From NCBI GenBank assembly GCA_013287965.1, contig JABDCU010000004.1, positions 13,503 through 77,502 of the forward strand: a DNA stretch of 64,000 nucleotides. The letters are read 5' to 3'. Below the pieces are notes generated by a model. That model did not search any database, was not told the origin of the DNA, and saw only the letters and a list, made by a program, of their open reading frames with translations. A program made the translations under genes and the position numbers. This document shows positions 14,978 through 40,439 of this stretch, piece after piece (position 1 is the stretch's first letter; the number at the start of each line of letters is the position of its first letter). Origin of the DNA: Candidatus Omnitrophota bacterium. GTDB lineage: Bacteria > Omnitrophota > Gorgyraeia > Zapsychrales > Fredricksoniimonadaceae.

Positions 14978-15060
14978 TTATGTGGCGCAGCCAGTTATGT
15001 GGCCTTGCGCCTCAAACCATGATATCTCCTAATATGGAATCAAAAGTTAACACCACATAA
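14978..15060. repeat. left terminal motif array: TTATGTGG (14978), TTATGTGG (14995), CCACATAA (15053)
   Basis: Read directly from the sequence. The contexts TTATGTGGCG and ACACCACATAA recur in inverted orientation at 40345..40425. Confidence 0.7.
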
Positions 15061-15074
15061 ACAACAGCAGTCTA

Positions 15075-16082
15075 TCACAGTGTTCTTAGAAATTGTACCA
15101 GATTTACATTGTCATGCCAACGTTTTACTGGCTTAGATTCAATATCACAAAAAGCCAGCGCCCTTGCTTTCATTTCAAGGTCAGTTTCAGCATAAATATT
15201 GGTCGTATTGATAGAAACATGCCCCAGCCAAGCTCGTATAGTATTAATATCAACTCCAGATCGTAAGAGATGTGTGGCAGTTGTATGCCGAATTGTATGA
15301 GGGCTAACTCGTTTAAGCTTCAGAGAGGGGACTCTCTCTGAGGCTTTTAGAGCATAACGTTCAACCAAGGTATAAATGCCAAAACGCGTAATAGGCTGTT
15401 TACAACGATTAAGAAAAACATGTTCTTTAACATCCCGCCCTTCTATAAGCAACCGTATTTCCTTTACAGTTTGAGACCATAACGGACAACTGCGAAGCTT
15501 ATTCCCCTTTCCACGAATAACTACTGATGAATAATTACGGCCTGGCACATGAGCCAAATTAAGGTCAGCAATGGTAACTTGAGCCGCTTCGTCGGCACGA
15601 ACTCCGGTGTTGTAAAGAAAAAGAAGAAGCGCATGGTCACGCTGTTTTTGAGGTGAAGTACATTCGGCAGCTCCAAGTAAAGCATCCATTTCCATTTTCT
15701 CAAGATAAGGAATTAATGCATGAGGAGCTCTCTTGAAAGGGATGGCCATGATCTGTCCAGACCACTGAATATGCTCAGGACTATAAAGTCCAATAAACTG
15801 AGCCAGTGAATGAATAGCTCCCAAACGTTGATTACGGGTTGTGATGCTTGAATGACGTGTCTTTTCAAGATCAAGAAGAAAAAGTAATACGTGCTCCCTC
15901 GAAACATCTTCGATCAAAAGTTGATCAATATTTTTTCGTGTCTGAGAGGCAATGAAAGGCAGAAGTAAACACAAAGTATCGCGGTAACTGCGCTGTGTAT
16001 TATATGAAAGATTTTTGACACTGATCAAATATTCCATTAAAAAACGTCTAATCCAAGGGCCAATCAAGCTATGGTTAATCAT
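15075..16082 (-). CDS. ritC: tyrosine recombinase, third gene of the recombinase trio
   Basis: Catalytic signature GVRADE...HTIRHTTATHLL...LGHVSINTTNIYA (R..HxxR..H..Y). The symbol is assigned by position in the trio. Confidence 0.8.
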   Translation of the reverse strand: MINHSLIGPWIRRFLMEYLISVKNLSYNTQRSYRDTLCLLLPFIASQTRKNIDQLLIEDVSREHVLLFLLDLEKTRHSSITTRNQRLGAIHSLAQFIGLYSPEHIQWSGQIMAIPFKRAPHALIPYLEKMEMDALLGAAECTSPQKQRDHALLLFLYNTGVRADEAAQVTIADLNLAHVPGRNYSSVVIRGKGNKLRSCPLWSQTVKEIRLLIEGRDVKEHVFLNRCKQPITRFGIYTLVERYALKASERVPSLKLKRVSPHTIRHTTATHLLRSGVDINTIRAWLGHVSINTTNIYAETDLEMKARALAFCDIESKPVKRWHDNVNLVQFLRTL

Positions 16083-16083
16083 T

Positions 16084-17022
16084 TCAAGCCTCCTTTAAAG
16101 TATATTGTTCAAAACGATGTCCTGCTTCTTCAAGTAATGCGGGTGTCATAGTAAGATAAACAGAAGTAGCAGCCAATGTGACATGTCCCAAGTAAACAGA
16201 CAACATCAGTACAAGATTTTGTACATCTGCCCCTTCTTTATATAAAGCAGTTAGACGATGAACTGCAAAAGTGTGGCGTAGATCATGAATGCGTGGCTGT
16301 TGATCACTATCAAGACGCCTAATATTCACTTTTTCACGGATACGTCTAAAATTTTCCCCGACAGCAGGTTGCTTAACGGCTTTTCTGTTTCTCCCTATAA
16401 AGAACGAAGATTGAGGATCTTGGGAATATTTTTTCTGCTTACGCCAAGAAACGTACTCTTGTAAAACCTGAGTCAATTGTTCACCAATAGGAACAAAACG
16501 TGACTTATAAAATTTCGTTTTCCGAATTGTGAGCAATGATTGATTCAAATCAACATCAGCCAATTTTAAAGAAATAGCTTCCCCAATTCGTAAACCACTT
16601 CCATATAAAAGTAATAAAATTGTACGCATCGTATAAGGTGAAATCCTACTATTAATTTTGTGATGAGTAAAACAGCCATTAATTAAAGCCTTAACTTCTT
16701 CAGTACTGTAAATATATGGTAAAAATCGTGGGGGCTGTTTCGGTATTACCAGTGGCAAAAGTGAAGTATCCGCATATCCTCGGCTGATTACATACTTATA
16801 AAAACCACGTAATGCGCTATGTCTAACATGCCAACTTCTAGTAACGGCAAAAGTCCCTCCTGTAAGAAAACTAATTACGGAATCAGGTTTCACTTCGGAA
16901 AGTTCAATCCCTGGCTCCAAGGTCCGAACAAAAGCTTTTAGTCTCCAGGAACCACTTTCAAAGGATTCACCAAGTGATTTTCGATAATTTATATATTGAT
17001 CAACTAACGTTAAAAGCTTCAT
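16084..17022 (-). CDS. ritB: tyrosine recombinase, second gene of the trio
   Basis: Catalytic signature GLRIGEA...IHDLRHTFAVH...LGHVTLAATSVYL. It starts 4 nt inside the upstream gene. Confidence 0.8.
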   Translation of the reverse strand: MKLLTLVDQYINYRKSLGESFESGSWRLKAFVRTLEPGIELSEVKPDSVISFLTGGTFAVTRSWHVRHSALRGFYKYVISRGYADTSLLPLVIPKQPPRFLPYIYSTEEVKALINGCFTHHKINSRISPYTMRTILLLLYGSGLRIGEAISLKLADVDLNQSLLTIRKTKFYKSRFVPIGEQLTQVLQEYVSWRKQKKYSQDPQSSFFIGRNRKAVKQPAVGENFRRIREKVNIRRLDSDQQPRIHDLRHTFAVHRLTALYKEGADVQNLVLMLSVYLGHVTLAATSVYLTMTPALLEEAGHRFEQYTLKEA

Positions 17023-18358: not shown

Positions 18359-18973
18359 TTATCGTTCCAATCTAAATCTCACTGGCACTCTTACCTCAGA
18401 CTCAACAGCCATGTTACCAATGCGGCCAGGCTGAAATTTCCAATGCCAGACAGCTTTTAAAGCCGCTTGATCAAGCAAACGAAATCCCGAACCATGTATA
18501 ATTTCTACATTGACCGGATTGCCTTCTTTATTCACATCAACCGACAACATGACAATACCTTCTTGGCGCATCTGCTTGGCAAGTTCAGGATATTGCGGCG
18601 GCGGGTTCTGGATATAATCCGGCTTGGCCTCTACTTTTACCTGGGCACTGGATGTCAGTATAGGCTTTAGCCTAATCAATACTTTAGGCGTTATAAGTTG
18701 TTTTGGTTTTTCTATAACCTTAACTGTTGGCTTTAGTATTTTAGGAACGATCTTCTCAACTTTTTTGACAACAGGCTTCGTTTCTTCTTGAACTTTAACC
18801 ACTTCTTTGGGTTCATCAATCAAACTAATGTCAATTTCACGACTTGGAGCAATGGCAAGTTGAGCTTGTCTGATGAACATTTTCCCCGTAAGAGAAAAAA
18901 ATAAGACATGGATTAAGACTGCTGCTGTCCAAGCTATAACGATATCCTGTTTGTTATTGTCTATAGAAACCAT
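18359..18973 (-). CDS. tonB: energy transducer TonB
   Basis: N-terminal TM segment, a Lys/Pro/Val-rich spacer, and a C-terminal TonB domain (PPPQYPELAKQMRQEGIVMLSVDV...GNP). Confidence 0.85.
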   Translation of the reverse strand: MVSIDNNKQDIVIAWTAAVLIHVLFFSLTGKMFIRQAQLAIAPSREIDISLIDEPKEVVKVQEETKPVVKKVEKIVPKILKPTVKVIEKPKQLITPKVLIRLKPILTSSAQVKVEAKPDYIQNPPPQYPELAKQMRQEGIVMLSVDVNKEGNPVNVEIIHGSGFRLLDQAALKAVWHWKFQPGRIGNMAVESEVRVPVRFRLER

Positions 18974-18978
18974 GACAC

Positions 18979-19401
18979 TTATTGATTTGAAGACTCTGCA
19001 CCTTTAGTTTGAATCGCCACCCTTGTAATCCCCACTGCCCTTACTTTATCAAGAACAGTAATTGCTCCCTGGAAATAAGCATGGCTGTCACCATTAATAA
19101 AGACTTTCAAATCAGGATCTTGATCTTTTAATTCTTTAAGACGTTCGGGTAAAGCATCCAGGCTTATCTTTTCCTGGTTAAGATAAACTTCATTTGTTTG
19201 AGTGACAGTAATTGTCACAGCGGCTTTGCGATCCTGTGAAACAGCAGTTTGTGCCGATGGTAAATTCACATTCAACCCTTGGTTTTTTACCATCGATAGA
19301 GAAATCATGACGAAAGTAGCCAACAGAAAGAAAATAATATCAATCAACGGGATTATTTCGATCCTCGCCCGTTTTCTGCTGACCGGAGATGGGATAATCA
19401 T
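18979..19401 (-). CDS. exbD: biopolymer transport protein ExbD/TolR
   Basis: Motif IEIIPLIDIIFFLLATFV followed by a periplasmic domain. Sits between the exbB and tonB genes. Confidence 0.85.
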   Translation of the reverse strand: MIIPSPVSRKRARIEIIPLIDIIFFLLATFVMISLSMVKNQGLNVNLPSAQTAVSQDRKAAVTITVTQTNEVYLNQEKISLDALPERLKELKDQDPDLKVFINGDSHAYFQGAITVLDKVRAVGITRVAIQTKGAESSNQ

Positions 19402-20006
19402 GATTTTTTCTCCAACTTAAGCAACAAAAGCTCCAGATGTGTGGCTGCCTGTTCAATTTCATGACGGGCTTCTTCAAGTCGCGCATTTAAATAATTAAAC
19501 GGTACAAGAGCGATGATCGCGATAGCCAAACCACAAGCCGTCGCAATCAAAGCTTGGGCTATACCACCGGTGATTACTGTTGGAGTTTGCAATTCTCTAC
19601 TACCTAATAAACCAAAGGCATGAATCATACCTGTCACCGTTCCCAACAACCCAAGCAAAGGCGCCACTGTGATAATTGTATCTAAAACGACCAATCCCCT
19701 ACTAAAGCGCTTTAGTTCGACACTAGCCGCTTGCATCAAGGCATTGCTTAGAGCATCTTCCCGGTGTGTTAAGCCATAAACCAAGGTCGTTGCAACATAA
19801 TCATGACAGCCTTGGGCTTCCTCAATGGCCTTGTCAATATTGCCATGTTGAACATTGGACAAGATAGCTTTAATAATGTCCGGTCTGTAGGATATTTTAA
19901 TACGCCATAAGAATAACAACCGCTCAATGACAACACTAAATGCCATCAATGAAGTAATAAGCAAGGGCCACATGACAGGGCCACCTTTAAGAAAAAGACT
20001 AAACAT
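19398..20006 (-). CDS. exbB: MotA/TolQ/ExbB proton channel protein
   Basis: Three TM segments and the conserved APLLGLLGTVTGMI motif. Confidence 0.85.
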   Translation of the reverse strand: MFSLFLKGGPVMWPLLITSLMAFSVVIERLLFLWRIKISYRPDIIKAILSNVQHGNIDKAIEEAQGCHDYVATTLVYGLTHREDALSNALMQAASVELKRFSRGLVVLDTIITVAPLLGLLGTVTGMIHAFGLLGSRELQTPTVITGGIAQALIATACGLAIAIIALVPFNYLNARLEEARHEIEQAATHLELLLLKLEKKS

Positions 20007-20017
20007 TTATCCTCCTG

Positions 20018-22138
20018 TTAGAAATCATACGTCACACCGCCATAATATCCACGGCGGGAACCAAATTGAGATGCGCCAACGCCAACACCTGTGCCATCCC
20101 TTAACTCATAGACCTCATCAAAAACATTGACCACATCAAAACGGACTTTGATGTCATTCTTATCATTAATTCTAAAGGTATGTTCAATACCCATATTAAT
20201 GGGGTTATAGGAGCCCACGCGTTTACCATTAGGCGTATCCCCACCTTTACGTAACCCACTACCAAAAAGCAAATCAGCGTAAACCTTGGTTTTATTCAAT
20301 GCTGATAAGGATAAATGATCAAATTCATATGCCAATCCAGCCGAAACTGTCAGACTCTGATCATGGTCTAAAGGTATATAGTGATCGGCAACGTAATTAA
20401 ACTCATCCTGGGAAAAATGATACTGACTGGATTCCCATGCCTTACCTAAAGCATGGCTGTAGGCGGCATTCGCATAACCAGAAAATCCACCTTTTTTATA
20501 GTTGATTGTTAATTCAGTCCCGTAAACCTTTCCTTTTTTATAATTAAAAGGAGTGACAATAGGCGCCGCACCAAACTGTCCGTCATCAAGTTGATGTGCA
20601 GCTATTTTATAATAACTATCCAAACCAACCTGCAATTCAGGCATGAAATTGTGTGTCACGCCTACATCAAAATAATGAGCGCGTTCTGCTTTAGCAGGGG
20701 AATTAATATCAATCTGAGCCGCGTTGGTTGTATTATCAAAAATAGCAGGATTAATATTTTGCTGTAGCTCAAGCGGTGGCGGGGTAAAATAACGAGCATA
20801 TCCTGCATGTATCTTGGTGGCTTGGTCGACTTCATAGACGGCATTAACGCGAGGGCTAAATTGATACTCATTAAGGTATTGGTATGATTGATCAAAACGA
20901 CCGCCGAAATTGATGGTCAAGGGATCAAAGACCTTCCATTCATCCTGCAAATAAAGGCCGTACTGTTCTCCCTGTTTTTGATTATTAACATTAATCGAAG
21001 TTTCAGGCCCGCTAACACCACTACCACTGTCTGGAAAAACTAAGGAATTATTCTCGTTAATAGCATCACTAATTGTAAATATCGACCCAGCACGAAGCGT
21101 ATGATTATCGTTTAACTGGTAACTACCATCCACCTCAAGGCCGTTGGTCAATATGCTGTCATTGATTTTGGTTGCGACCCCGTTATATTCCAAGTCTCCG
21201 ATATTATCAGGCAGATAATTAGCCTCACTAAAACGGGTAAAGGCAGAAACCTGATAATTGAGCTTATCCTCAGCCTTTTGGTATGCGACAATGCCATAAA
21301 AATTCTGTTCTATCTGGCGATCATTCACATTGCTTGAATCAATGCTTGGAAGTGGGAGAGGATTCCCAGCAGTATCAGTAAATGGAGATCCGCCGGGACT
21401 GTTGGGAATTTGAAAATCACTATGGGAAGCACTCAGCATCACGTTAAGGCGGCTGGTATCATCGATGACCTTGGAGACATAGGCAAACATCTTGCCCTGC
21501 TGAGTTTGGTCATGGATAGCTGATGTGCCATTGGTGGGATTTTCAATACCAAGATTGTCTTCCAAATAACTACCAGTGACAAAATAGTTAATCCCTCCTT
21601 TTGCAGAGCCTCCATAGGTAAAGCTGGGGTTGACTTCACTATGACTGCTCCCATACATGGAAATGTCACCACCATTAGTAAATGCCCCGCTTTTAGTATG
21701 AATATCCACAATGCCTGCTGTATGAAAACCATATTGGGCTGGCAGCGATCCATCAATCAAAGAAACATTGTCTACAAAGCGTGTGTCAAGTTCTTCACCA
21801 AAGCCTGTCAGTCCTTCCGGCAACAAAACATCATTAATCCTATATTGCAAATTGGCATGTTCGCCACGAACATGTAATTGCCCAAATGAATCCTGGACAA
21901 CCCCAGGAGCTCTTAATAGGACCTGATTGAATGAGGCATTGTCACCTTGGGTTTGATCGTCGATCTGATCACTGGCAATGTTATAATCGGTTGCCCCAAG
22001 GCTTGGTTGAATACTATTACGGGCTTGATCTAATTTCCCAATCACATCCACTTCATTAAGTTGAGTTGATGATGTGTTATCCGCGTTACTATTAATAGAG
22101 AACCAACATAGAAAACCTGCCAAAAACCATACCCACAT
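20018..22138 (-). CDS. TonB-dependent outer-membrane receptor
   Basis: 706 aa with a signal peptide and a plug domain (LLRAPGV...GQLHVRG). The beta-barrel repeats are rich in Y/G/N, and the C-terminus ends in an aromatic residue (...GVTYDF). Confidence 0.85.
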   Translation of the reverse strand: MWVWFLAGFLCWFSINSNADNTSSTQLNEVDVIGKLDQARNSIQPSLGATDYNIASDQIDDQTQGDNASFNQVLLRAPGVVQDSFGQLHVRGEHANLQYRINDVLLPEGLTGFGEELDTRFVDNVSLIDGSLPAQYGFHTAGIVDIHTKSGAFTNGGDISMYGSSHSEVNPSFTYGGSAKGGINYFVTGSYLEDNLGIENPTNGTSAIHDQTQQGKMFAYVSKVIDDTSRLNVMLSASHSDFQIPNSPGGSPFTDTAGNPLPLPSIDSSNVNDRQIEQNFYGIVAYQKAEDKLNYQVSAFTRFSEANYLPDNIGDLEYNGVATKINDSILTNGLEVDGSYQLNDNHTLRAGSIFTISDAINENNSLVFPDSGSGVSGPETSINVNNQKQGEQYGLYLQDEWKVFDPLTINFGGRFDQSYQYLNEYQFSPRVNAVYEVDQATKIHAGYARYFTPPPLELQQNINPAIFDNTTNAAQIDINSPAKAERAHYFDVGVTHNFMPELQVGLDSYYKIAAHQLDDGQFGAAPIVTPFNYKKGKVYGTELTINYKKGGFSGYANAAYSHALGKAWESSQYHFSQDEFNYVADHYIPLDHDQSLTVSAGLAYEFDHLSLSALNKTKVYADLLFGSGLRKGGDTPNGKRVGSYNPINMGIEHTFRINDKNDIKVRFDVVNVFDEVYELRDGTGVGVGASQFGSRRGYYGGVTYDF

Positions 22139-22157
22139 AAACCTTCTCCTTGTTTGT

Positions 22158-22178
22158 AAATAGAAAACATTTCTATTT
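22158..22178. promoter_or_regulatory. 9-3-9 palindrome AAATAGAAA-aca-TTTCTATTT upstream of the TonB-dependent receptor gene
   Basis: Perfect inverted repeat. The identical arms recur at 22654..22674. Confidence 0.5.
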
Positions 22179-22194
22179 ATTGATTAAAAAAATT

Positions 22195-22215
22195 AAACAG
22201 AAACAGTTTCTGTTT
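22195..22215. promoter_or_regulatory. 9-3-9 palindrome AAACAGAAA-cag-TTTCTGTTT (variant of the same box)
   Basis: Perfect inverted repeat that differs from the 22158 box at one position per arm. Confidence 0.45.
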
Positions 22216-22230
22216 AAAGATTAAAAAAAT

Positions 22231-22653
22231 TTATACACACTTAGGACAAAGACCTTCAAGCTGAACAAAATGCTTCAACACTTTAAAACCACTTGCACGA
22301 CCCATGCTTGCCAATGCACATCCATCAACATCTTCTACCTTCCCGCATTTTACACAGACAATATGATGATGGTGATCATTGCTGTGGCTATGACATAAAG
22401 CGTAATATAGTCGCCTCTCTTCCCTTTGAATCTTGACTAAAATACCGCAATCCTCAAATGATTCCAAGTTCCTATAAACACTCGGAAAGCCAATACGCTT
22501 AAAATTTTTCTTCAATTGGTTCCAAACATCTTCAGGGGTTAAACAACGCCCTTCCTTTATAAAATAATTCAATATCGCCTCGCGTCTTGGCGTGAATTTA
22601 AGTCTTTGAGATTTTAATTTTTCGATATATGTTGTCATTTTGCTCAATTCCAT
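22231..22653 (-). CDS. fur: Fur-family metalloregulator
   Basis: Winged-helix N-domain (TPRREAILNYF) and the motif HSHSNDHHHHIVCVKCGKVEDV...C..C. The start could also be MTTYIEK (22638). Confidence 0.85.
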   Translation of the reverse strand: MELSKMTTYIEKLKSQRLKFTPRREAILNYFIKEGRCLTPEDVWNQLKKNFKRIGFPSVYRNLESFEDCGILVKIQREERRLYYALCHSHSNDHHHHIVCVKCGKVEDVDGCALASMGRASGFKVLKHFVQLEGLCPKCV

Positions 22654-22733: not shown

Positions 22734-23699
22734 TTATTCTTGATTGGAGATAGGAATGATCCGCACAAAAGTTTTCTCGAATTGACGGATAATCGTCAAA
22801 ATATACGGATGTCCCACACTATAATTGGTCAACAGCCGATGCAAATCATCGATGCTGGAAACTAACTGATCATTGATACCAACGATAATATCACCCACGG
22901 CCAGCCCCGCTTTATCCGCAGGACTGTTGGGCTCAATACCAGACACACTGATACCAGACTCCACTGGCAATTTACCCACGTGTACAATACCATGAGGCAA
23001 AACCACATTCTGCCCCATGATACCGATAAACGCACGGGTGATGCGACCATACTGTAACAATTCAGTCATAATCAACTTGGCCGTGTTTGAAGGAACCGCA
23101 AAACAAATTCCCTGGGCAGGTAAAATCACGGCGGTATTGATACCGACGACTTGCCCCTGACTGTTAAATAACGGCCCCCCTGAGTTGCCCGGATTAAGAG
23201 CCGCGTCAGTTTGGATCACTTGTTCAATCAGACGTCCAGACTGTGACCGCATGGAACGTCCCAAGGCACTGATAACGCCTGCTGTCAGGGTGCATTGAAA
23301 TCCAAAAGGATTGCCGATTGCAATGGCAATCTGCCCTACCTGAATACGGTTGGAATCGCCTAATTGCACATAGTTGAGATTTTGTAAGCCAACACGAATC
23401 ACCGCCAAATCTGTGTGTGGATCATCCCCAACTAACTGGGCCTCTGATTTACGACCGTCAATAAAGGTTATCTTGATCCGTTTGGCCCCATGAACCACAT
23501 GGCTATTAGTTAAGATAAACCCATCGGGCGTAAACACAAAACCGGAACCACCGGCTGGCGTATCACCTTTTTGCACTTCAATATTGACCACTGCAGAAGA
23601 AGAGTGTTGAAAAACCCCGCTAACCGTCTGCGAATAGCTGTCTAATAACTTATCGTCGGAAGTACGCATATAACCTCCTACTTTTCTACATAGCCGCAA
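22734..23699 (-). CDS. HtrA/DegP-type serine protease with one PDZ domain
   Basis: Catalytic triad context: TNSHVV (His), DLAVIRV (Asp) and GNSGGPLFN (Ser). The C-terminal PDZ carries GLAVGDIIVGIND. Confidence 0.85.
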   Translation of the reverse strand: MRLCRKVGGYMRTSDDKLLDSYSQTVSGVFQHSSSAVVNIEVQKGDTPAGGSGFVFTPDGFILTNSHVVHGAKRIKITFIDGRKSEAQLVGDDPHTDLAVIRVGLQNLNYVQLGDSNRIQVGQIAIAIGNPFGFQCTLTAGVISALGRSMRSQSGRLIEQVIQTDAALNPGNSGGPLFNSQGQVVGINTAVILPAQGICFAVPSNTAKLIMTELLQYGRITRAFIGIMGQNVVLPHGIVHVGKLPVESGISVSGIEPNSPADKAGLAVGDIIVGINDQLVSSIDDLHRLLTNYSVGHPYILTIIRQFEKTFVRIIPISNQE

Positions 23700-24435: not shown

Positions 24436-24441
24436 TTTTTA

Positions 24442-30545: not shown

Positions 30546-30607
30546 GATGTTTTCTCCTTTTAGATTATAGTTTAACTGCTACTACACTTCTAAGCATACT
30601 GGAGGAT

Positions 30608-30648: not shown

Positions 30649-30661
30649 ACGCCACAGCCCA

Positions 30662-32211: not shown

Positions 32212-32223
32212 GACTCTCTCCTT
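32135..32223. repeat. 89-nt duplicated 5' region (RBS + signal peptide), copy 2
   Basis: See 31725..31813. Confidence 0.8.
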
Positions 32224-32233
32224 CGCAGAAATG

Positions 32234-32830
32234 TTATTGCTTATCCGCTTCTATATTGATTGAAAGAAGTATGTCATTACTGACGAATACCCCGCCCTGA
32301 TCCAGATTCCTGTTCCAGTTAATACCATAATCTTGTCGGTTAATTGTAATCGAACCACTAATCCCTATGGCCTGGCGGTCTCCCATGGTCTTGACCGGTC
32401 CTAAAATGCTTACAGGAATGGTAATATCCTTAGTGACGTCCTTCATGGTCAATTTCCCTGTTATATATCCAGGAGTAAACTTTGTACTGACAAAGGTTAT
32501 ATTTGGATATTGGGCAGCGTTAAAAAAGTCTGGGCTTCTTAAATGATGATCACGTTGCTCAGTGCGGGTATTGATGCTGTTGACATCAATACTCACATTT
32601 GCTTTGGAATTTGTTAAATCCTTAGGGTCATAGGTAATTGTTCCGCTAAATTTCTCAAACTGTCCGGGTACTTTGCTGATCATCATATGTGTGGCCGTAA
32701 AAGCAAAGCTGCTGTGCGCCGGATCAATGACATAGGTGTCTGCTGCAAAAGCAGCTGAAGTCATTAATAATGAAATTGCTATAAACATTACTTGAATAGG
32801 TCGACGCATAAATCCTCCTTTAAAATTCAT
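32234..32830 (-). CDS. YceI-family periplasmic protein
   Basis: Signal peptide followed by YVIDPAHSSFAFTATHMMISKVPGQFEKFSG, the YceI signature. Confidence 0.8.
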   Translation of the reverse strand: MNFKGGFMRRPIQVMFIAISLLMTSAAFAADTYVIDPAHSSFAFTATHMMISKVPGQFEKFSGTITYDPKDLTNSKANVSIDVNSINTRTEQRDHHLRSPDFFNAAQYPNITFVSTKFTPGYITGKLTMKDVTKDITIPVSILGPVKTMGDRQAIGISGSITINRQDYGINWNRNLDQGGVFVSNDILLSINIEADKQ

Positions 32831-32892
32831 GTTTCTCCGTTACTAAAAAGAGTGGTCACAGGCTTGGGCTCTCAAGCCTGTGACCACCACTT

Positions 32893-33786
32893 TTAATTTC
32901 CTAAGGAATCTGCAATTGAATGTTCAGTGATTACACATTCTCCTGTATCAGCTTTCACTAATACACTGCGGAAGCCTAGGTTCTTGTAGGGATGAGCGGG
33001 GTCCCAAGGAACTGGTGTGCTTTTTGGTTGAGAGCCTGGTGCAGGCAAAGCAAACATCAATGGTGCTGCAGCGTGGTGACCGATATGACCTGTCATATAA
33101 TCATTGAGCTGATGAATATGGCCATAGAAAACCGTCACTTGCTTAAATGGCATCAACATGTCTATAGCCTTCTGACCATCCTTGGTTGACCAGCCCCATT
33201 TAGGATAAAGATCAAACAATGGTCTGTGGGTAAAAACAACAAGATGAGCATTATCACGATCCAACTTGCTTAGATCATTCTGCAACCATTGCAATTGAGC
33301 TTCACCCAAACTTGCTTCTTCCTCGGTAGTATTTAATACAATGATGTGAGCCCCTTTGTGATCAAAGGAATAGTAAACAGCTTTGCCAAAAAATTCCTTG
33401 AAAGCCTCTCCATTATCTTGATCAGCATCATGTTCACCTGGATTGAATCTAACGTCTTTGACCTTAAGCCCTGATAAGATGGTGCGCACTTCAGTCATCC
33501 TTTTGATGCGCTGCTCGGGCGTTTTGGCCCTGTGTGTCAAGTCACCGGTGATGACTACAAAATCCGGTTGAGGGTCTAACTTATTGACTGCATCAACAGC
33601 TTTTTGTAAAGTCCCTGCATAGTCCGGGTTCATCTTTGGATCATTAAACCCCCAATGAATGTCGGATAATTGGACAAATGTAAAATCACTGGGTGTATCT
33701 GTGGCGGCGTCCTGGGCGAAGGCGCCAGTTGACCATACACTTACAGCTAACATCAACATCATTGATAAAATCTTTAAACTTTTCAT
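32893..33786 (-). CDS. secreted metallophosphoesterase (calcineurin-like)
   Basis: Motifs QLSDIHWG, ITGDLTH, GEHD and FTHRP...GHIH. Confidence 0.8.
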   Translation of the reverse strand: MKSLKILSMMLMLAVSVWSTGAFAQDAATDTPSDFTFVQLSDIHWGFNDPKMNPDYAGTLQKAVDAVNKLDPQPDFVVITGDLTHRAKTPEQRIKRMTEVRTILSGLKVKDVRFNPGEHDADQDNGEAFKEFFGKAVYYSFDHKGAHIIVLNTTEEEASLGEAQLQWLQNDLSKLDRDNAHLVVFTHRPLFDLYPKWGWSTKDGQKAIDMLMPFKQVTVFYGHIHQLNDYMTGHIGHHAAAPLMFALPAPGSQPKSTPVPWDPAHPYKNLGFRSVLVKADTGECVITEHSIADSLGN

Positions 33787-33818
33787 TTTTTCTTCTCCTT
33801 ATGTTTACTGTTTGTTGG

Positions 33819-34283
33819 TTATGCTTTTTGAGCAGCATCTTTAATAAAATTAGTGAGATCTTCTAATTGTTCCTTCGCATTTCCCCCATCACTTTTTAGG
33901 ACCTGAAGTTCAAGCAAGGCCGCTTGAATGTAAGCTTCCCCTAAATATTCATGGGCTTCCGGGAAATTCGGACGCAATTCCAAGGCTTTTTTGTAATTGG
34001 CTAAGGACTCATCGAGAAGACCAATCTTGCGTTGAGTGTGGGCCAACATATTCAGAATGTCCGGATTATTGGGATCATTCCTTAAGGCCTGCTCAAAAAG
34101 CGGCAACGCTTTTTGAAAATCATTGGCTTGGCTCGCCGCGACTCCTTGATCATACAAAGAAACTGTCTGTGGGGTGGCTGTCGGGTTACTGGCAGCCATG
34201 GCGTTTGTTGACGTATCATCAGCCATTGCCATCTGCGGCATCAGTAAGACCGCGGTGATTAATAAAAGATTTACGTTTTTCAT
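33819..34283 (-). CDS. secreted TPR-repeat protein
   Basis: Signal peptide plus three TPR-like units (ALPLFEQALRNDPNNPDILNMLA; ANYKKALELRPNFPEAHEYLG). Confidence 0.75.
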   Translation of the reverse strand: MKNVNLLLITAVLLMPQMAMADDTSTNAMAASNPTATPQTVSLYDQGVAASQANDFQKALPLFEQALRNDPNNPDILNMLAHTQRKIGLLDESLANYKKALELRPNFPEAHEYLGEAYIQAALLELQVLKSDGGNAKEQLEDLTNFIKDAAQKA

Positions 34284-34410: not shown

Positions 34411-35826
34411 TTAGAGGGATTTTAGAGGGATATTAATGCTGAAAGTAGTACCTTGACTTAAGGCACTCACGACGGAAATGCTCCCACCCATCGATGCAAC
34501 CATGGACTTGACAAAACTTAATCCCAGCCCATGTCCAGGCGTTGAACGGCTGGATTCAACACGATAAAATTTCTCAAATATGCGCGACTGATCCTTTGAG
34601 GCGATACCGATTCCGGTATCTTTAACCAGGATAATTGCTTCGTTGGGAGTTTCTTTAATTTCAAGACAAATGCTTCCCTTAGAATTAGTAAATTTGATGG
34701 CATTATCCAAAAGATTAGCAATAATTCTTTGCAAACGTGCCGCATTGGCCAAGACAATAACTGGATGCGATGGAGATTTAATTTCAAAATTGATCTCTTT
34801 ATCTTGGGCTAAGGCCAAAAATATTTCATAAGCTTGGTTTGCCAAAGACACAATATCCACAGAAGTCTCTTCAGGTTTCTTTAGGCCCGCATCAACCTCC
34901 GCAATTTCCAGCATGGTATTGATCATGCCATTAAGCCTATCGCATTCTTCTACGATGATCCCAATGGATTCCTGATAACCTTCTACATCCTTCTCCCTCA
35001 AGGTTGATTCCGCAAGGCCCCGGATGCGGGTCAAAGGCGTGCGCAAATCATGGGCAATATTATTGGTAACATCCTTTAATCCCATCATCAATTGCTCGAT
35101 GCGATCCAACATATGATTAAAAGTTTCTGCCAAATCCTCGATCTCTTCTCCCTCATGCCCCAACTCAACTCTATGATCAATGCCATCTTGACCAATATTA
35201 CGGGCCGTCGTCGTGACACGTTTTACACCCTTCATCGCTTTTTGCGCTTCTATCCAACTCAAAATAATACCGCACAATAGCAAAAAAATGACTGCCCCTA
35301 AAAATACCTTGCTGTAAACCTTGGCTAATTCCTCTTCATCCTTCATGGGTTTACCAATTTGTACAACATACTTCCCATCATCAACCACCTGTGAAAGGAT
35401 TCGTATATTATATGGCCTGTCGTTAGGAGAAAGTGTGTGGTAGTTGGTCTGGCCCCCTGCCGCCATCGATGCCCATTGGCTTAATACCGGAAAATTTAAA
35501 CAGGGCCATTTAAGAGGGTCTGAAGTCACAACAATATTTAAGTTGGAGGTCAATAATCTATAAAACACTCTGTTAATCCCTTCTTCCTCAATCCCTACAC
35601 GTATATCCGATTTGACTTGGGTCAATCCTTCCTTATGGAACTCTTGATCAACCTTGTTTGTAGCAGCCAATAAATCACGATCAACAAGGTGCACAAGGTC
35701 AGACGCCAATATTTTATAACTGATAAAGAAAATAATAATTAATGAGATGATAAACAGGATGGCGTACCAGAGAGTGAGGCGAAAAGCAAAAGTGCCGAAG
35801 AGGCTATTCTTTTTCTTCAATGACAT
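34411..35826 (-). CDS. sensor histidine kinase (2 TM, HAMP, HisKA, HATPase_c)
   Basis: H-box NIAHDLRTPLT, N-box LLDNAIKFT, G1 DTGIGI and G2 GHGLGLS. The start is placed at MSLKKK. The ORF track extends to 35877. Confidence 0.85.
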   Translation of the reverse strand: MSLKKKNSLFGTFAFRLTLWYAILFIISLIIIFFISYKILASDLVHLVDRDLLAATNKVDQEFHKEGLTQVKSDIRVGIEEEGINRVFYRLLTSNLNIVVTSDPLKWPCLNFPVLSQWASMAAGGQTNYHTLSPNDRPYNIRILSQVVDDGKYVVQIGKPMKDEEELAKVYSKVFLGAVIFLLLCGIILSWIEAQKAMKGVKRVTTTARNIGQDGIDHRVELGHEGEEIEDLAETFNHMLDRIEQLMMGLKDVTNNIAHDLRTPLTRIRGLAESTLREKDVEGYQESIGIIVEECDRLNGMINTMLEIAEVDAGLKKPEETSVDIVSLANQAYEIFLALAQDKEINFEIKSPSHPVIVLANAARLQRIIANLLDNAIKFTNSKGSICLEIKETPNEAIILVKDTGIGIASKDQSRIFEKFYRVESSRSTPGHGLGLSFVKSMVASMGGSISVVSALSQGTTFSINIPLKSL

Positions 35827-36481
35827 AACCAAAGCCCCTGACCGTATGAAGTAATTTTGGATTAAATGAACGATCAATTTTATCTCTTAAGCGACAGATG
35901 CGCGCTTCAATAATATTGGTTTGCGGATCAAAATTATAGTCCCAGACGTGCTCCATGATCATGGTCTTTGAAACGACCCTGCCGGCGTTACGCATAAGGT
36001 ATTCAAGAAGGACAAATTCACCCGACTGTAGGATTATTTCTTTTGTCCCCCGGAAAACTTTACGGCCTAACATATCTATCTTGAGATCAGCTATTTCTAA
36101 TGTGGTAGTCTCTGGATTATGGCTGGTCCTGCGAATAATTGCCTGGACCCTGGCTAAAAGTTCTGTGAACGCGAAGGGTTTAACCAGGTAATCGTCCCCT
36201 CCTGCCTGTAACCCTTTGACCCTGTCATCAACGGTATTCTTGGCGCTTAATACTATGACAGGGGTTAGAATTTTCTTTTGACGCAATCGGTTGATCAAAC
36301 TTAAACCATCAAGTTTAGGCATCATAATATCTACAATGGCCAGATCGTAGTCTTCTTCTTTAGCAAAATGCAGACCATCTTCACCATTATCAGCACGATT
36401 TACGGTGTATCCAGCTTGCTTTAAGCCTTTAACGATAAACGATGCTATCTGGTCATCATCTTCAACTAATAGTATTTTCAT
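35804..36481 (-). CDS. OmpR-family response regulator
   Basis: Receiver domain (MKILLVEDDD, DLAIVDIMMPKLDG, KPF) plus a winged-helix domain (LLEYLMRNAGRVVSK...VRGFGYV). The start is placed at 36481. The ORF track extends to 36559. Confidence 0.85.
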   Translation of the reverse strand: MKILLVEDDDQIASFIVKGLKQAGYTVNRADNGEDGLHFAKEEDYDLAIVDIMMPKLDGLSLINRLRQKKILTPVIVLSAKNTVDDRVKGLQAGGDDYLVKPFAFTELLARVQAIIRRTSHNPETTTLEIADLKIDMLGRKVFRGTKEIILQSGEFVLLEYLMRNAGRVVSKTMIMEHVWDYNFDPQTNIIEARICRLRDKIDRSFNPKLLHTVRGFGYVIEEKE

Positions 36482-36654
36482 ACTCTCCGTGACCTTGTAC
36501 TCCTTTAGGTCGTAAATAGTCCAGTAAGATTCTTTACTCGCGAAGTTTACCACTCTCAATCTGAAAAAGCAAATTCAATAATATTCAGAGATTCAGAGGT
36601 TCAAATGCAGGAGCTGCTATTGCGGTTTATAGGAAGGTTGTAAATTACTAAATA

Positions 36655-36978: not shown

Positions 36979-37335
36979 TTATTTTTCACTTTTGCTTTTA
37001 TTTTTGTAATATTCCTTTTTAATCAATTCATCACACTTTCTAGCCCGCTCAATTTGACTTTTAGTCCAATTAGGTGCCCTCTGTACCCTGCTGTTTGTAA
37101 TAAAATAATGTGATTGGCACTTAAAACTCCAATTCCCAATCGAAGGATATAAAGACACAGTCTCCCCGTCATAAATCAACTTCCAATCAGTCGGGGAGAG
37201 CGGCGTCACAACTTCTTCCCCACAGCCACAACAGCATTTATGAATTACTGTTGAATATTCGATGGAAATATACAAAACGCCATCTTCCAATTTGTCCGGG
37301 GCATGCTTTATAAATTTGTGCGTCAATTTAATCAT
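36979..37335 (-). CDS. Cys-rich small protein resembling DUF6527 (putative Zn-binding partner of prokaryotic E1/Ubl systems)
   Basis: 118 aa with a HKCCCGCGEE cluster and a distal KCQSHYFI (C/H ligand pattern). 8-nt overlap with the E1 gene. Confidence 0.65.
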   Translation of the reverse strand: MIKLTHKFIKHAPDKLEDGVLYISIEYSTVIHKCCCGCGEEVVTPLSPTDWKLIYDGETVSLYPSIGNWSFKCQSHYFITNSRVQRAPNWTKSQIERARKCDELIKKEYYKNKSKSEK

Positions 37336-38494
37336 TTATCACTTTATTTACATTGGTTTCATAAATCGAATGACTCTCTGCTGTGAGGTCATGATAAAAA
37401 TTAAAATATTTTTTCCACTTAATAACAGCTATAGCCGCATTTAATGCATTCAACTCGACTATTTGAATATTCTTATTGTATTCATTTTCCCCTTCATCAG
37501 TGAATGGTATTCTTAACTCAATGTGATCATTCTTTTCTTTAGTGACCAGTGTCGTGCGCACACTCCCACTTACCTTCCCATTCTCAAGGTTAACACCCAT
37601 ACCTACATCAATGAAAGGAATCAATAGCCCAGTAAGTTTCTGAACAATTAACTTCCTTGCATCCCCTTTATCAATGCAAATAAAGACAAAATCCATCGAT
37701 AGAAGCTCGTCGAATACCGCAGGTGTTACATAACAATCATGGGGTACAACATGCTTATGAATATTGGAGTACATATCGCTATAATAATTGACCTTCTTTA
37801 GCATCTGCCTCAATGTTTCAACCGAAGCGGCGGCAGGAGCCCGAAATGCGTTCTTTGAAACAAAAATGTCACCATCAAAAAGGTGAATTTCTTTAACCGG
37901 CGTTTTAGCAATAAAGTCAAGAATATAGGAACCTGCGCCCCCTAACCCTATAATGACGACCTTTAAGTCCCTTAATTCTTTAGTAACGACCTCAAGTTCA
38001 ATACAACTTGGACTTGGATTTAAATATTTAAAGACAACATCTTGCTCTTTAGACTCGATCACCTTACCTGTCCTCGCGGTAACAACTGGATTCAATGCCT
38101 GCGCCTGGGACTCCAGATGCGAAACGTAAGTTTCAATTTTTTCAAAATAATCCGGGTAATTGCCGCTGGGTGGTTTTGCCGAAAAATAATGGTCAGCTAC
38201 TACCCCATAGCCCAGATCCTTTTTTACGCTGTTGTTAACTATTGCATTAAGGATGGATCCATCTTTATCACATGGAGAGTCGCCCTTAAAGTATATGGTA
38301 TGGTCAGCCGGACCAAGGAGCTGCTCCCCAGAAATATTTAAAAGACATACCAAAGTTCCGGGGCTAATCTCTTTATTAGTATTAACGTACGGCACGTTAT
38401 ATACAAGCAAGATAGTGCCTTTAATTTCTATTTCATAGCCCTCAGCACGCAGCCTTTGAAGGTCCGGGCTAAGACTTATCAGTTTTTCTGACAT
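37328..38494 (-). CDS. ThiF/E1-like adenylyltransferase with an unassigned ~170-aa N-terminal domain
   Basis: The C-terminal half has the Rossmann motif VVIIGLGGAGSYILDF, an NLxRQ-equivalent SKNAFRAP, and FVFICIDKGDARKLI...IDVGMG. The N-terminal half has no motif I can name and one notable Cys (GDSPCDKDG). Confidence 0.8.
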   Translation of the reverse strand: MSEKLISLSPDLQRLRAEGYEIEIKGTILLVYNVPYVNTNKEISPGTLVCLLNISGEQLLGPADHTIYFKGDSPCDKDGSILNAIVNNSVKKDLGYGVVADHYFSAKPPSGNYPDYFEKIETYVSHLESQAQALNPVVTARTGKVIESKEQDVVFKYLNPSPSCIELEVVTKELRDLKVVIIGLGGAGSYILDFIAKTPVKEIHLFDGDIFVSKNAFRAPAAASVETLRQMLKKVNYYSDMYSNIHKHVVPHDCYVTPAVFDELLSMDFVFICIDKGDARKLIVQKLTGLLIPFIDVGMGVNLENGKVSGSVRTTLVTKEKNDHIELRIPFTDEGENEYNKNIQIVELNALNAAIAVIKWKKYFNFYHDLTAESHSIYETNVNKVIND

Positions 38495-38747
38495 TGAAAA
38501 TCATCCCTTCCTTGACTTTGACGCTTTGGCCCTTGGTCAAAGACCCTTCATGTTTCGGATCATGGCCTTTTATATATGTTACAGAGTATAGAACGTTTGG
38601 ATTATCCACATATGTGCTGAAAGCAAGTATGATAACTTCTTCGTATGTGATTTCCTTTTTGTCCCAGGCCTTGATACGTGTGTTAACGATGATCTCAACT
38701 TGCTGATGATGCTCTTCGTGGTGGTGTTCATGTTTTTCATGGTTCAT
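38469..38747 (-). CDS. ubiquitin-like beta-grasp protein of the multiubiquitin type, with a His-rich N-terminal tail
   Basis: The start is set at MNHEKHE, preceded by AGGAGG 6 nt upstream. The ORF track starts at 38774. The tail reads HEKHEHHHEEHH. The body, VEIIVN...KEITYEEVIILAF...YSVTYIKG...EGSLTKGQSVKVKEGMIFNV..TDKS, resembles Multiubiquitin-family sequences as I remember them. Confidence 0.65.
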   Translation of the reverse strand: MNHEKHEHHHEEHHQQVEIIVNTRIKAWDKKEITYEEVIILAFSTYVDNPNVLYSVTYIKGHDPKHEGSLTKGQSVKVKEGMIFNVRKTDKS

Positions 38748-38765
38748 ACTTACCTCCTGGGTTAT

Positions 38766-38784
38766 TTTACGCAACTTGCGTAAA
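38766..38784. promoter_or_regulatory. perfect 9-1-9 palindrome TTTACGCAA-c-TTGCGTAAA just upstream of the Ubl RBS
   Basis: Read directly from the sequence. A 1-nt centre rules out an RNA hairpin loop, which favours a dimeric HTH operator. GCGTAA/GCGTAT half-sites recur at 39902..39916, upstream of the XRE gene. Confidence 0.45.
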
Positions 38785-38801
38785 TTGTGATTAAAAAAAT
38801 A

Positions 38802-39527
38802 TCAATGCCATTCTCTCCGACGGGGATCTTCATAACTATTAATCCCATCATGTTCGAGCACAAAATCATCTCCTGGCAAAATCAAAAGTCCTAACGTTTT
38901 CAACCTTAATTCAGCAGACTGCCTGGAAACATCGAAACAGGACACTAAATCCTGTAGCAATGCATTTTGGTTATGTGATTTTGACCTAAACTGTCTGACC
39001 TTTTCTTTAAAAATTGAAACTGGCATTAAGAGCGCCGCCGATCCTCTATTGGCCTGCCATTCAATAAAATCTCTTGTGTTCTGTGATGGAGCAACCGTAC
39101 TTTCCATAAAATGATTTTCAAAACATCTTAATGTGCGATCATCGCCGGCATTACGAAAAAGTTGGCCGTGAAATAAAGAATGAAAAATCTCATGCGCACA
39201 GGTAAAACGAAACCGACCTTTAAATGCCGGTGTATTTCTTTGATGATAAAGAATGGCATTGATCTGAATTAATTTGGATCCATCAGGATTGAACATTGTC
39301 GCACCTAAAATAAACCTTGAAAGTTGGGCCTGGGAATCGAATCCAATATCTTCCTGAGTCAGCGCCTCATCGACGAATCGATCAAGATCAATGGCGGGAT
39401 GAATCATGTTGCAGGCGCCTTTATAAAACTTTAGGTACCTCTCTTCCATGATATCATCGATATCAGCCCCCGAACAAACTAGCCGACATCCATAAGGACT
39501 TTCCTTGTCATCAACCCACTGCATCAT
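38802..39527 (-). CDS. ImmA/IrrE-family (COG2856) zinc metallopeptidase
   Basis: HEXXH motif in CAHEIFHSLFH. The downstream EWQANRGSAALLMP is the typical ImmA/IrrE third-ligand region. Confidence 0.8.
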   Translation of the reverse strand: MMQWVDDKESPYGCRLVCSGADIDDIMEERYLKFYKGACNMIHPAIDLDRFVDEALTQEDIGFDSQAQLSRFILGATMFNPDGSKLIQINAILYHQRNTPAFKGRFRFTCAHEIFHSLFHGQLFRNAGDDRTLRCFENHFMESTVAPSQNTRDFIEWQANRGSAALLMPVSIFKEKVRQFRSKSHNQNALLQDLVSCFDVSRQSAELRLKTLGLLILPGDDFVLEHDGINSYEDPRRREWH

Positions 39528-39892
39528 TTCTTTCCATTTCCTTTTTCAAGTTCTTTATTTAATTTCTGGATAATATCAGAATCTTCAGGTAACTCAGCGA
39601 GACGACGATAAAGAAGCGCCATCTCTGGCTTTTTACTTACGGTTTCTTCAATCAGCGGATCAACCTTTCCCGCCAAATTAAGCAAATCTTGAGAGTCAAG
39701 CTCTAGCTTTTTAGCAAGCTGAACAATGATTTTCCCTCCAGGAGGGTTACGATAACCTTGTTCAATATCATTGAGATACGATACTGAAATTGACTTAAGG
39801 TCATCATTCTTTACTGCATCGCATACTTTTTTTAAACTTAGATTCAGGTGAAGACGCTTGTTCTTGATTTTCTTTCCAAATTCATTTTGCAT
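39524..39892 (-). CDS. XRE-family helix-turn-helix regulator
   Basis: The pattern FGKKIKNKRLHLNLSLKKVCDAV...ISVSYLNDIEQGYRNP fits HTH_3. 4-nt overlap with the ImmA gene. No Shine-Dalgarno sequence, and a TATAAA lies 3 nt before the ATG, so the transcript may be leaderless. Confidence 0.8.
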   Translation of the reverse strand: MQNEFGKKIKNKRLHLNLSLKKVCDAVKNDDLKSISVSYLNDIEQGYRNPPGGKIIVQLAKKLELDSQDLLNLAGKVDPLIEETVSKKPEMALLYRRLAELPEDSDIIQKLNKELEKGNGKK

Positions 39893-40016
39893 ACTTTATA
39901 AGCGTATAGCGTAATCCTCTACTTGTCAAATTAATTTTACCTATTTAATTTACAATGCCCCCTTCCAAATCATTCGTCGATGAATTCAAGTTAGAAAATA
40001 ATACTCCTGCCGAGAT

Positions 40017-40277
40017 TTATTCCTGATCGGCTTCTTTATTTTCTTCCGTTAACTCGATCCTAACTCGTCTGCGATTATGCTTACTATCAGGGACACCCAA
40101 TAATTCTATTAATTCCAAACACAATTGGACAAATGCCTCTTGTTCCGCGAACTCACCTCCCTTTTCTTCAACAACATAACTTTTTGTGACCTCTATTTCT
40201 TTTCTGTCAGCACCTTCCATATAGTCTGGGTAAAATATAATAAAACCGTTGTCTGCCTGCTCTATCGTTATTTTCAT
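40017..40277 (-). CDS. small acidic hypothetical protein
   Basis: 86-aa ORF with no recognisable motif. Confidence 0.4.
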   Translation of the reverse strand: MKITIEQADNGFIIFYPDYMEGADRKEIEVTKSYVVEEKGGEFAEQEAFVQLCLELIELLGVPDSKHNRRRVRIELTEENKEADQE

Positions 40278-40344
40278 TTAGTTCCTTTCCCAGGGCCCAT
40301 CCTGTGGCCAATTGGCTAAAATTTGTTTAATTATGGTGTTAGAA

Positions 40345-40439
40345 TTATGTGGTGTATAATTAAAAAATTACTATAGAGTAAATTGAAAGAAAAATCTATG
40401 CAACATAATCAACAACGCCACATAATACGTCTTATGTGG
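40345..40439. repeat. right terminal motif array: TTATGTGG (40345), CAACATAA (40401), CCACATAA (40418), TTATGTGG (40432)
   Basis: Mirror image of 14978..15060. In addition, 40418..40439 is a perfect 8-6-8 inverted repeat: CCACATAA-tacgtc-TTATGTGG. Confidence 0.7.

Follow-up and report, generated by a model that had tools for sequence, protein, structure and literature searches.

The 64-kb stretch of Candidatus Omnitrophota DNA analyzed here (contig JABDCU010000004.1, positions 13,503 to 77,502; hereafter the window) contains, just upstream of comF, an insert of 25,474 bp that encodes the three tyrosine recombinases RitA, RitB and RitC of a recombinase-in-trio (RIT) element. Our preferred interpretation, to which we give a probability of about 0.8, is that positions 14978-40451 are a RIT-bounded island that inserted as a unit, with 22 kb of passenger genes lodged between the array of recombinase sites at the ritA-side end and ritA itself. 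RIT elements are common on bacterial chromosomes and plasmids; their ends were previously ill-defined and they were thought to be cargo-free. This locus and its relatives provide nucleotide-exact ends, a general 6-bp target duplication and a testable two-core model of strand exchange, together with evidence that, in this case within an uncultivated phylum, the trio can take adaptive genes from one species to another in blocks of tens of kilobases (metal uptake, detoxification, defence and, in a relative, a cluster for a ribosomally synthesized and post-translationally modified peptide, RiPP). An initial annotation of the window, made from the letters alone, had proposed an integrated element whose ends are recombinase-binding arrays, either a cargo-carrying RIT or an island mobilized by the trio. 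This proposal is supported by the rarity of the 8-mer outside the arrays, a break in composition and empty sites in relatives, and further by arrays conserved beside homologous trios across phyla, the presence of one end of each type and an identical copy in a diverged host.

Insertion site and boundaries

Homologues of ComF identify the host as a member of Omnitrophota. Four Omnitrophota relatives (L086-L089, ComF 81-87% identical to that of the window) have an uninterrupted junction between pyrE plus a 98-aa gene and comF. Their gene order is Maf/DUF192-pyrE-98-aa gene-comF-lptF-lptG-alr, with 5-66 nt between the 98-aa gene and comF. In the window, pyrE and the 98-aa gene lie to the left of the insert and comF, lptF and lptG to its right; the initial identification of pyrE, comF and lptF/lptG is confirmed. 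In the junction alignment the empty site reads ...TTAATTATATGGTAACATACGG(A/C)ATG, the left junction of the window ...TTAATTATATGGT/TTATGTGGCG and the right junction ...TCAACAACATAA/ATATGGTAACATACGGCATG, the slashes marking the edges of the element. Because the empty-site junctions can be aligned to the window, the limits of the insert are placed at 14978 and 40451, its right edge lying 17 nt before the comF start codon; the search for an empty pyrE...comF junction, which the initial annotation had recommended, thus fixed the boundaries to the nucleotide. The 7-nt sequence ATATGGT occurs once in the empty sites and once on either side of the insert (Table 1), and a copy of TTATATGG at 14969 belongs to the target, not to the element.

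The insert also stands out in composition. Its GC content is 0.417 compared to 0.468 in the flanks (Mann-Whitney p = 3e-6), and GC at third codon positions (GC3) ranges from 0.25 to 0.47 inside (0.56 in leuA) compared to 0.51-0.65 in the core flank genes, so that the AT-richer interior first noticed by eye is confirmed by both measures.

Terminal arrays

Both ends of the insert carry arrays of the 8-mer TTATGTGG/CCACATAA. Exact counts give nine copies in the window versus 2.37 +/- 1.62 in shuffled sequences (the earlier estimate was about two expected in 64 kb), and 0 of 100 shuffles reach nine. Six of the nine fall in two arrays of ~100 nt, the remaining three being isolated (7749, 9914 and 22133). 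The array positions first reported were all correct, with TTATGTGG at 14978, 14995, 40345 and 40432 and CCACATAA at 15053 and 40418; allowing one mismatch adds CAACATAA at 40401 and 40444, besides the TTATATGG of the target. In the whole window, 14978 (+) and 40425 (-) are the only places with two copies 17 nt apart and at most one mismatch in each. When the two arrays are compared in opposite orientations, they have in common the layout TTATGTGGCG-N7-TTATGTkG-~50 nt-ACACCACATAA, and the sequence between the sites is not conserved. The window holds one end of each type, with the N7 spacer TTGYTGA on the ritA side and YAGCCAG on the ritC side: the N7 of the left array (CAGCCAG) resembles the ritC-side TAGCCAG of the related locus L004, and that of the right array (TTGTTGA, reverse complement) the ritA-side TTGCTGA of the same locus. 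The distance from the ritA-side array to ritA is 22 kb, and no vestigial array was found beside ritA in the ritA-tonB interval (18267-18358).

At the right end, a perfect 8-6-8 inverted repeat (40418-40439) had been read as having the classic layout of a tyrosine-recombinase core site. The repeat is exact and its core-like character stands, but it is not the junction of this insertion, since the boundary is another 12 nt out; what it represents is a second core-like site, internal to the element, between the terminal palindrome and the array's outermost site. The element does not end at 40439 but runs to 40451, a further CAACATAA at 40444-40451 forming the second half of the terminal palindrome P and completing it.

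Recombinase trio

The three recombinase genes lie just inside the left array, as initially annotated, and are supported by Pfam (Table 1). All are encoded on the minus strand, with an overlap of 4 nt between ritA and ritB and a gap of 1 nt between ritB and ritC. The RIT archetypes are the ritABC genes of Cupriavidus metallidurans CH34 and C. necator pHG1, reportedly described by Van Houdt in 2009 and 2012 and by Ricker in 2013. In tblastn searches against the pHG1 archetype, each window protein matches its own counterpart (RitA 137, RitB 148 and RitC 166 bits; cross-matches at most 58 bits), with 28-34% identity one to one. This one-to-one order of RitA, RitB and RitC is kept in 54 trios, and the window RitC is 52-75% identical to the RitC of other trios. 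The catalytic columns of RitA (R/K/H-x-x-R/H/Y) are invariant across 44 homologues, the motifs HDLRH and GH..Y of RitB and HTIRH and GH..Y of RitC can be read directly from the sequence, and all three open reading frames (ORFs) are intact. The RitA subfamily has two sequential core-binding domains (PMC8138268), and the window RitA is predicted to share them: its AF2 model (pLDDT 80) comprises helical domains at residues 1-107 and 120-204, followed by the catalytic domain at 233-407. The RitC subfamily carries a further C-terminal helix that is conserved (PMC8138268), and in the window RitC ~30 residues follow the catalytic Tyr. Many RitA homologues are found on contigs whose length is 3.2-3.6 kb, as is usual when a unit of this size is present in multiple copies, and RitC homologues occur on >4,000 PLSDB plasmids, E. 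coli IncB/O/K/Z plasmids among them.

Related elements and their target duplications

An alignment-based scan of one genome per species yielded 80 loci, 54 of them with a complete RitA-RitB-RitC trio, in Planctomycetota, Clostridia, Elusimicrobiota, Burkholderiales, Acidobacteriota, Chlamydiota and others; a single-sequence RitA scan of genome contigs gave none. Dozens of these loci, in many phyla, are compact RITs of ~3.4 kb with the same arrays directly beside ritA and ritC, and exact copies of TTATGTGG/CCACATAA are almost confined to the two arrays that touch the trio. Upstream of ritA lie two direct sites (A1 and A2) and an inverted one (A3), at about -143, -126 and -69, and downstream of ritC their mirror image (C3, C2 and C1), at about +10, +68 and +85. 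This ritC-side geometry is that of the window and follows ritC in many of the 54 complete-trio loci, and the ritA-side array of the window has the layout found upstream of ritA in compact RITs. Within an element, the outermost site of one end varies in step with that of the other, TTCTGTGG occurring with CCACAGAA and TTGTGTGG with CCACACAA. A widespread clade of RITs has these arrays as its conserved ends, in the form of terminal inverted repeats.

Among 46 distinct TTATGTGG-type elements for which both ends are present, 20 show a perfect 6-bp direct repeat immediately outside these ends (chance 1/4096 each), and six more match at five of the six positions. A 20-nt palindrome (site-N4-site) lies outside the ritA-side or the ritC-side array in 26 related elements, always within the duplication, and the 6 nt between this palindrome and the outermost site are the reverse complement of the duplication, at all six positions in 10 of the 26 and at five positions in another 5. 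On a Vicinamibacterales chromosome with at least eight copies, GATGTT flanks the copies whose palindrome is on the ritA side and AACATC those in which it is on the ritC side; in one pair of copies the flanks are the same and the core is inverted. Two loci of the multi-copy Vicinamibacterales genome (L041 and L044) have no matching duplications, which may reflect rearrangement between copies.

Cargo is found in the same slot, between the ritA-side array and ritA, in several relatives. In Granulicella sp. S190 (L081, NZ_LMUD01000047.1, 381-13284), a 12.9-kb RIT has its ritA-side array 9.5 kb upstream of ritA; these 9.5 kb encode a MacB-type permease, two MvdD-type ATP-grasp enzymes and a C39-peptidase ABC exporter, that is, a graspetide-type RiPP cluster, and a perfect GCGATG duplication flanks the whole 12.9 kb, cargo plus trio. 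The cargo amounts to 6.6 kb in L002, 2.7 kb in L035 and 0.5-1.2 kb in L020, L023 and L031. A TTATGTGG-type RIT on the conjugative E. coli IncK2/Z plasmid p550_IncB_O_K_Z (NZ_CP058225.1; L090, 61673-65603) has a perfect GACCCG duplication, splits the VLDP/FAGSGS motif of a DNA methylase gene and carries one additional 191-aa gene between ritC and the ritC-side array; it offers a tractable system for tests of RIT mobility. The nearest relative of the window trio (L001) shares with it only the trio and 20 nt upstream of ritA, and it also has no array beside ritA.

Other arrangements were also observed. Elements without the palindrome (L012, L042, L055 and L032), as well as L049 with a palindrome at both ends, have flanking 6-mers that are mutual reverse complements, and the flanks of L012, L042 and L049 form imperfect inverted repeats over at least 30 nt, as if the unit sat in a larger palindromic structure. 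The ritA-ritC distance is 4.4 kb in L046, L034 contains five array pairs in 8 kb, and L017 and L019 show a displacement of 0.4-0.9 kb for the two arrays alike.

An identical element end in a second host

Scanning metagenomes with the ritA-side end of the window retrieved one other contig, L094, with the element at the same site. It is 100% identical to the right 3.9 kb of the element (window positions 36600-40451) apart from the 6-nt spacer between the palindrome and A1, which on the ritABC strand is GACTGC in L094 versus GACGTA in the window. The flanks of L094 are diverged (alr 83%, lptFG 86% and comF ~63-86% identical to the window), and the switch in identity falls at the end of the element. 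The identical flank adjoining the element measures 35 nt and is largely conserved in the empty-site relatives too, so that no donor flank was co-transferred on the visible side. When the relatives are ordered by ComF identity, an empty site at 87% is followed by the occupied one (L094) at 84% and by empty ones at 82% and 81%. An identical element end beside a diverged flank, with occupied and empty sites interleaved, means, as far as the right 3.9 kb visible in the L094 metagenome contig can tell, that the element was recently transferred horizontally and that two species have it integrated at one and the same site.

The terminal 263 nt of L094 (11473-11735) are identical to window positions 36199-36461 in inverted orientation, directly after window position 36593, reflecting either a real inversion in the population or an assembly fold-back. 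Two further contigs with identical RitA (L095 and L096) were rejected as independent copies: they are 100% identical including the flank and come from the same population.

A proposed two-core model of strand exchange

We propose, tentatively and at slightly less than even odds, a model in which RitA, RitB and RitC would bind the repeated 10-mer TTATGTGGCG, present as three copies per end plus two in palindrome P, and would excise the whole segment as a circle. The circle junction would form a symmetric array, ...C2-C1-(6-7 nt)-P-(6 nt)-A1-A2..., or, in the letters of the window, ...CGCCACATAA-(A)CCATAT-TTATGTTGTTGACCACATAA..., and would carry two dif-like cores CCACATAA-N6-TTATGTGG, with P between them. 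An exchange of strands in one of the 6-7-nt spacers would integrate the circle, that spacer becoming the direct repeat on both sides. The choice of core would set which end retains P, use of the other core leaving P at the other end together with the complementary repeat, and the unused spacer would persist within the element, where it would record an earlier site. Such a choice would account for the side of the palindrome and for the GATGTT/AACATC pattern in the relatives. The internal spacer of the window, unrelated to the duplication and different in the two hosts, fits a sequence carried over from an earlier site.

In a broader and equally provisional view, for which the odds again fall a little short of even, RITs would be more than selfish trios of 3.5 kb, namely general, phylum-spanning cargo transposons with a symmetric two-core junction, exchange within a 6-bp spacer, a palindrome side decided by the core and a spacer that serves as heritable record, and the element in Omnitrophota, 25 kb in size, would be the first large cargo RIT to be documented, seen after a recent interspecies transfer.

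Points against a unit insertion and alternative histories

The evidence that the window element is mobile as a unit is indirect: the empty sites, the target duplication and the identical copy in a diverged host. Several points weigh against our interpretation. The mobility of RITs has never been demonstrated in the laboratory (PMC10214605, PMC3414803), and the interpretation leaves the route by which the cargo entered between the array and ritA without explanation. The duplication measures 7 nt (or 6+1) here and 6 nt in the relatives. Nor does the window spacer beside P read as the reverse complement of that duplication; a palindromic junction of this kind, which is the rule in many relatives, was rejected for the window copy. 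No clear Rit half-site dyad was found in the target TTAATTATATGGTAACATACGG, which contains only the one-mismatch TTATATGG, oriented wrongly for a core site; because this copy faces the wrong way and no dyad accompanies it, we make no claim about target recognition. As for the second host, only the ritA-side 3.9 kb are visible, the contig ending inside the element; we infer that the trio is present there as well, and some residual chance remains that L094 is a chimeric metagenome assembly.

A nested history would be that a compact ~3.4-kb RIT landed upstream of comF and that the 22 kb entered later by another route, leaving a disrupted RIT, immobile as a unit. Most relatives are indeed compact, the limited sequence shared with L001 suggests a recombination-prone junction just upstream of ritA, and the GC content of the trio (0.396) is slightly below that of the cargo (0.421). 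We nevertheless consider this history unlikely: within the cargo, Pfam revealed no signature of any other integrase or transposase or of a repeat; L094 has the cargo together with the ritA-side end, 100% identical in a host diverged by ~15%, so that at least that composite moved together; and the perfect duplication of the Granulicella element encloses cargo plus trio. It is distinctly improbable that the island spread among Omnitrophota by homologous recombination of its flanks (for example through transformation) instead of Rit-mediated integration. In its favour, both copies share one site, which would then simply reflect homology of the flanks, and the flanks are conserved core genes, but identity drops from 100% to ~63-86% right at the end of the element, the 35 identical flanking nucleotides are largely conserved in empty-site relatives as well, the 6-nt spacer differs between the copies, as recombinase activity predicts, and the exact target duplication fits integration. 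That an island acquired separately happens to lie between two unrelated RIT remnants, the composite never having inserted in a single event, is very improbable: although fragments and complex arrangements of RITs do occur (pHG1, L034), the whole block is absent from the relatives, a single ATATGGT has been duplicated at its outer edges, and one ritA-type and one ritC-type end stand in the correct inverted orientation. Finally, the idea that the motif clusters are due to chance or are host regulatory sites unrelated to recombinases, in favour of which only the shortness of the motif can be cited, is refuted by the shuffles and by the same arrays flanking homologous trios in dozens of genomes.

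Comparison with known mobile elements

A RIT-bounded island inserted as a unit, our preferred reading, agrees in most features with described RITs. Like them, the window element has its recombinase genes in the order A-B-C, all three running in the same direction and overlapping or abutting, each product matching its cognate pHG1 protein best, and imperfect inverted repeats at both ends (14978-15060 and 40345-40451), as in the relatives and in pHG1, whose arrays also combine two direct copies, at a spacing of 17 nt, with an inverted one ~55 nt inward. The half-site differs, being TTATGTGG in the window and TTATGCCG in pHG1, and the element, with its 25,474 bp, its passengers and its Omnitrophota host, lacks the compactness (~3.5 kb, three genes) of the type. 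On sequence grounds, it shows every testable characteristic of RITs except that one. Described RITs are ~3.5-kb passenger-free units of unproven mobility, and their repeats were judged unconvincing or treated briefly (PMC3414803, PMC10214605, PMC5737581). No cargo-carrying RIT appears in the descriptions of these three papers; Ricker et al. 2013 stands outside this comparison and may describe repeat sub-structure.

GInt and SE elements are likewise cargo islands of tens of kilobases in which one end holds a module of several recombinases, with site-specific or site-preferring integration and 6-bp junction features (PMC10214605, PMC5385486). However, they need a fourth small protein (GinD/Srap) and the non-canonical Tfp/GinC, whereas RIT ends are long arrays in inverted orientation. 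This identity was rejected: the window has only three canonical recombinases, the neighbours of the trio are TonB and the terminal array, and the only hit to the NCBIfam model of the gamma-mobile-trio recombinase (GmtY) reaches 35 bits compared to a cut-off of 340. The Tn554 family transposes by tyrosine recombinases (TnpA and TnpB) plus a helper and carries a 6-bp junction sequence between sites, but it has neither terminal inverted repeats nor target duplication (PMC10214605); it was rejected in view of the inverted arrays and the ATATGGT duplication (6-7 nt) of the window.

XerC/XerD-dif and IMEX elements were also compared. The site at which XerC and XerD act in E. coli, dif, is GCGCATAA-TGTATA-TTATGTTA. 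The window core CCACATAA-N6-TTATGTGG matches it at 6 of 8 positions per arm, but in contrast to these systems the window element encodes its own recombinases and lies upstream of comF, not at a dimer-resolution site. Although Rit proteins are 'simple' Xer-like recombinases (PMC8138268), they score 117-149 bits in the XerC/XerD equivalog models, compared to cut-offs of 330-335, and the dimer-resolution identity was rejected. Tn916/CTnDOT-type elements share excision and integration by tyrosine recombinase, with a 6-7-bp, possibly heterologous overlap that is carried to the next site; a comparable coupling sequence would account for a spacer that varies and preserves the trace of an earlier site. 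Unlike them, the window element has three recombinases and arrays of identical sites, not separate arm-type and core-type sites. It also has no conjugation, mobilization, virion, Xis or other integrase or transposase families among the 31 ORFs checked with Pfam and no single integrase accompanied by Xis, which led us to reject an integrative and conjugative element, an integrative and mobilizable element or a prophage. Tyroviruses (PMC9703825) have three dispersed recombinases and are not RITs; in PMC12306157 'RIT' stands for Rho-independent terminators, and PMC4817265 does not mention RITs.

Cargo genes

From 15075 to 40277 every gene is on the minus strand, ~28 cargo ORFs lying between ritA and the ritA-side array (Table 1; gene families were assigned with Pfam, defence genes with PADLOC, and equivalog cut-offs taken from NCBIfam/TIGR models). 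These passengers include a TonB module for metal uptake, genes of redox metabolism and detoxification, leuA, a two-component system and a ubiquitin-like operon that looks like a defence system.

Table 1. Features of the insert and its target site in the window
Feature	Position	Strand	Evidence or remarks
Left target copy ATATGGT	14971..14977	.	Single ATATGGT in L086-L089 empty sites
ritC-side terminal array	14978..15060	-	C1 14978-14987 (TTATGTGGCG), C2 14995-15002, inverted inner C3 15053-15060
ritC, tyrosine recombinase, 335 aa	15075..16082	-	Pfam Phage_integrase 8.9e-32
ritB, tyrosine recombinase, 312 aa	16084..17022	-	Pfam; 148 bits to cognate pHG1 RitB
ritA, tyrosine recombinase, 415 aa	17019..18266	-	Pfam; >1,400 homologues
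Cargo module 1: TonB, ExbD, ExbB, TonB-dependent receptor, Fur-family regulator	18359..22653	-	Pfam
Cargo module 2: HtrA-like protease, SDR, GST, nitroreductase, DoxX, luciferase-like monooxygenase, TetR, 2-isopropylmalate synthase	22734..29510	-	Pfam
Cargo module 3: hypothetical protein, DoxX, NHL-repeat protein, cytochrome c, YceI, metallophosphoesterase, TPR protein	29760..34283	-	Pfam
Cargo module 4: histidine kinase, OmpR-type response regulator	34411..36559	-	Pfam
Cargo module 5: HTH (CapH-like), M78 peptidase (CapP-like), Multi_ubiq, DUF6791-ThiF E1, DUF6527	36979..39892	-	Pfam, PADLOC
86-aa ORF	40017..40277	-	ORF list; last cargo ORF before ritA-side end
ritA-side terminal array	40345..40425	-	A3 40345-40352, A2 40401-40408 (CAACATAA), A1 40416-40425 (CGCCACATAA)
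6-nt spacer TACGTC	40426..40431	.	Between A1 and terminal palindrome; makes 8-6-8 dif-like core
Terminal palindrome P, TTATGTGG-TCAA-CAACATAA	40432..40451	.	Inside boundary set by empty sites
Right target copy ATATGGT	40452..40458	.	comF ATG next, at 40469

The TonB-dependent receptor of module 1 has homologues 75-89% identical in other Omnitrophota, and two loci with a GC content of 0.41 (L091 and L092) contain a Fur-ZnuA-receptor-ExbB-ExbD-TonB module in ordinary chromosomal DNA without a RIT. This donor-like GC of its relatives points to an Omnitrophota lineage of lower GC as the source of at least module 1. A 37-nt unit with the palindrome TAAATAGAAA-N4-TTTCTATTTA is present in three copies (22157-22230 and 22653-22689), which bracket the fur-family gene and precede that of the TonB-dependent receptor; they are probably Fur/Zur boxes. 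The 2-isopropylmalate synthase gene of module 2 (leuA; 27864-29510, minus strand) is genuine, scoring 722 bits with TIGR00970, above the cut-off, and is the only cargo gene with a host-like GC3. Module 5 looks like a CapH/CapP-regulated bacterial ubiquitin-like defence system, PADLOC giving 3.7e-15 for capP and weak matches for the E1-E2 components. ThiF and Prok-JAB genes also lie near the RIT of L004. Pfam and PADLOC searches gave no match for the 86-aa ORF.

Two further repeats were observed in the cargo. A 50-nt repeat (90% identical) with the palindrome AAGATTACATTTTTGTAATCT lies downstream of two cargo gene groups (30605-30654 and 34342-34391), and an 89-nt repeat (87% identical; 31725-31813 and 32135-32223) spans, for the NHL protein and the cytochrome c alike, the ribosome-binding site and the start of the signal peptide.

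Other variable regions in the window

Outside the insert, a 1235-aa ORF between lptG and alr (43365-47072, minus strand) has a low GC3 (0.44) and no match in Pfam or PADLOC. In L086-L089 alr directly follows lptG, and in L094 a different large ORF occupies this position, so that the lptG-alr interval looks like a second variable or inserted region. On the left side of the window, a 2540-aa ORF (1911-9533, minus strand) also has a low GC3 (0.44), and its C-terminal ~60 residues resemble the C-terminus of a partial 331-aa ORF adjacent to the trio in L001 (49% over 59 aa).

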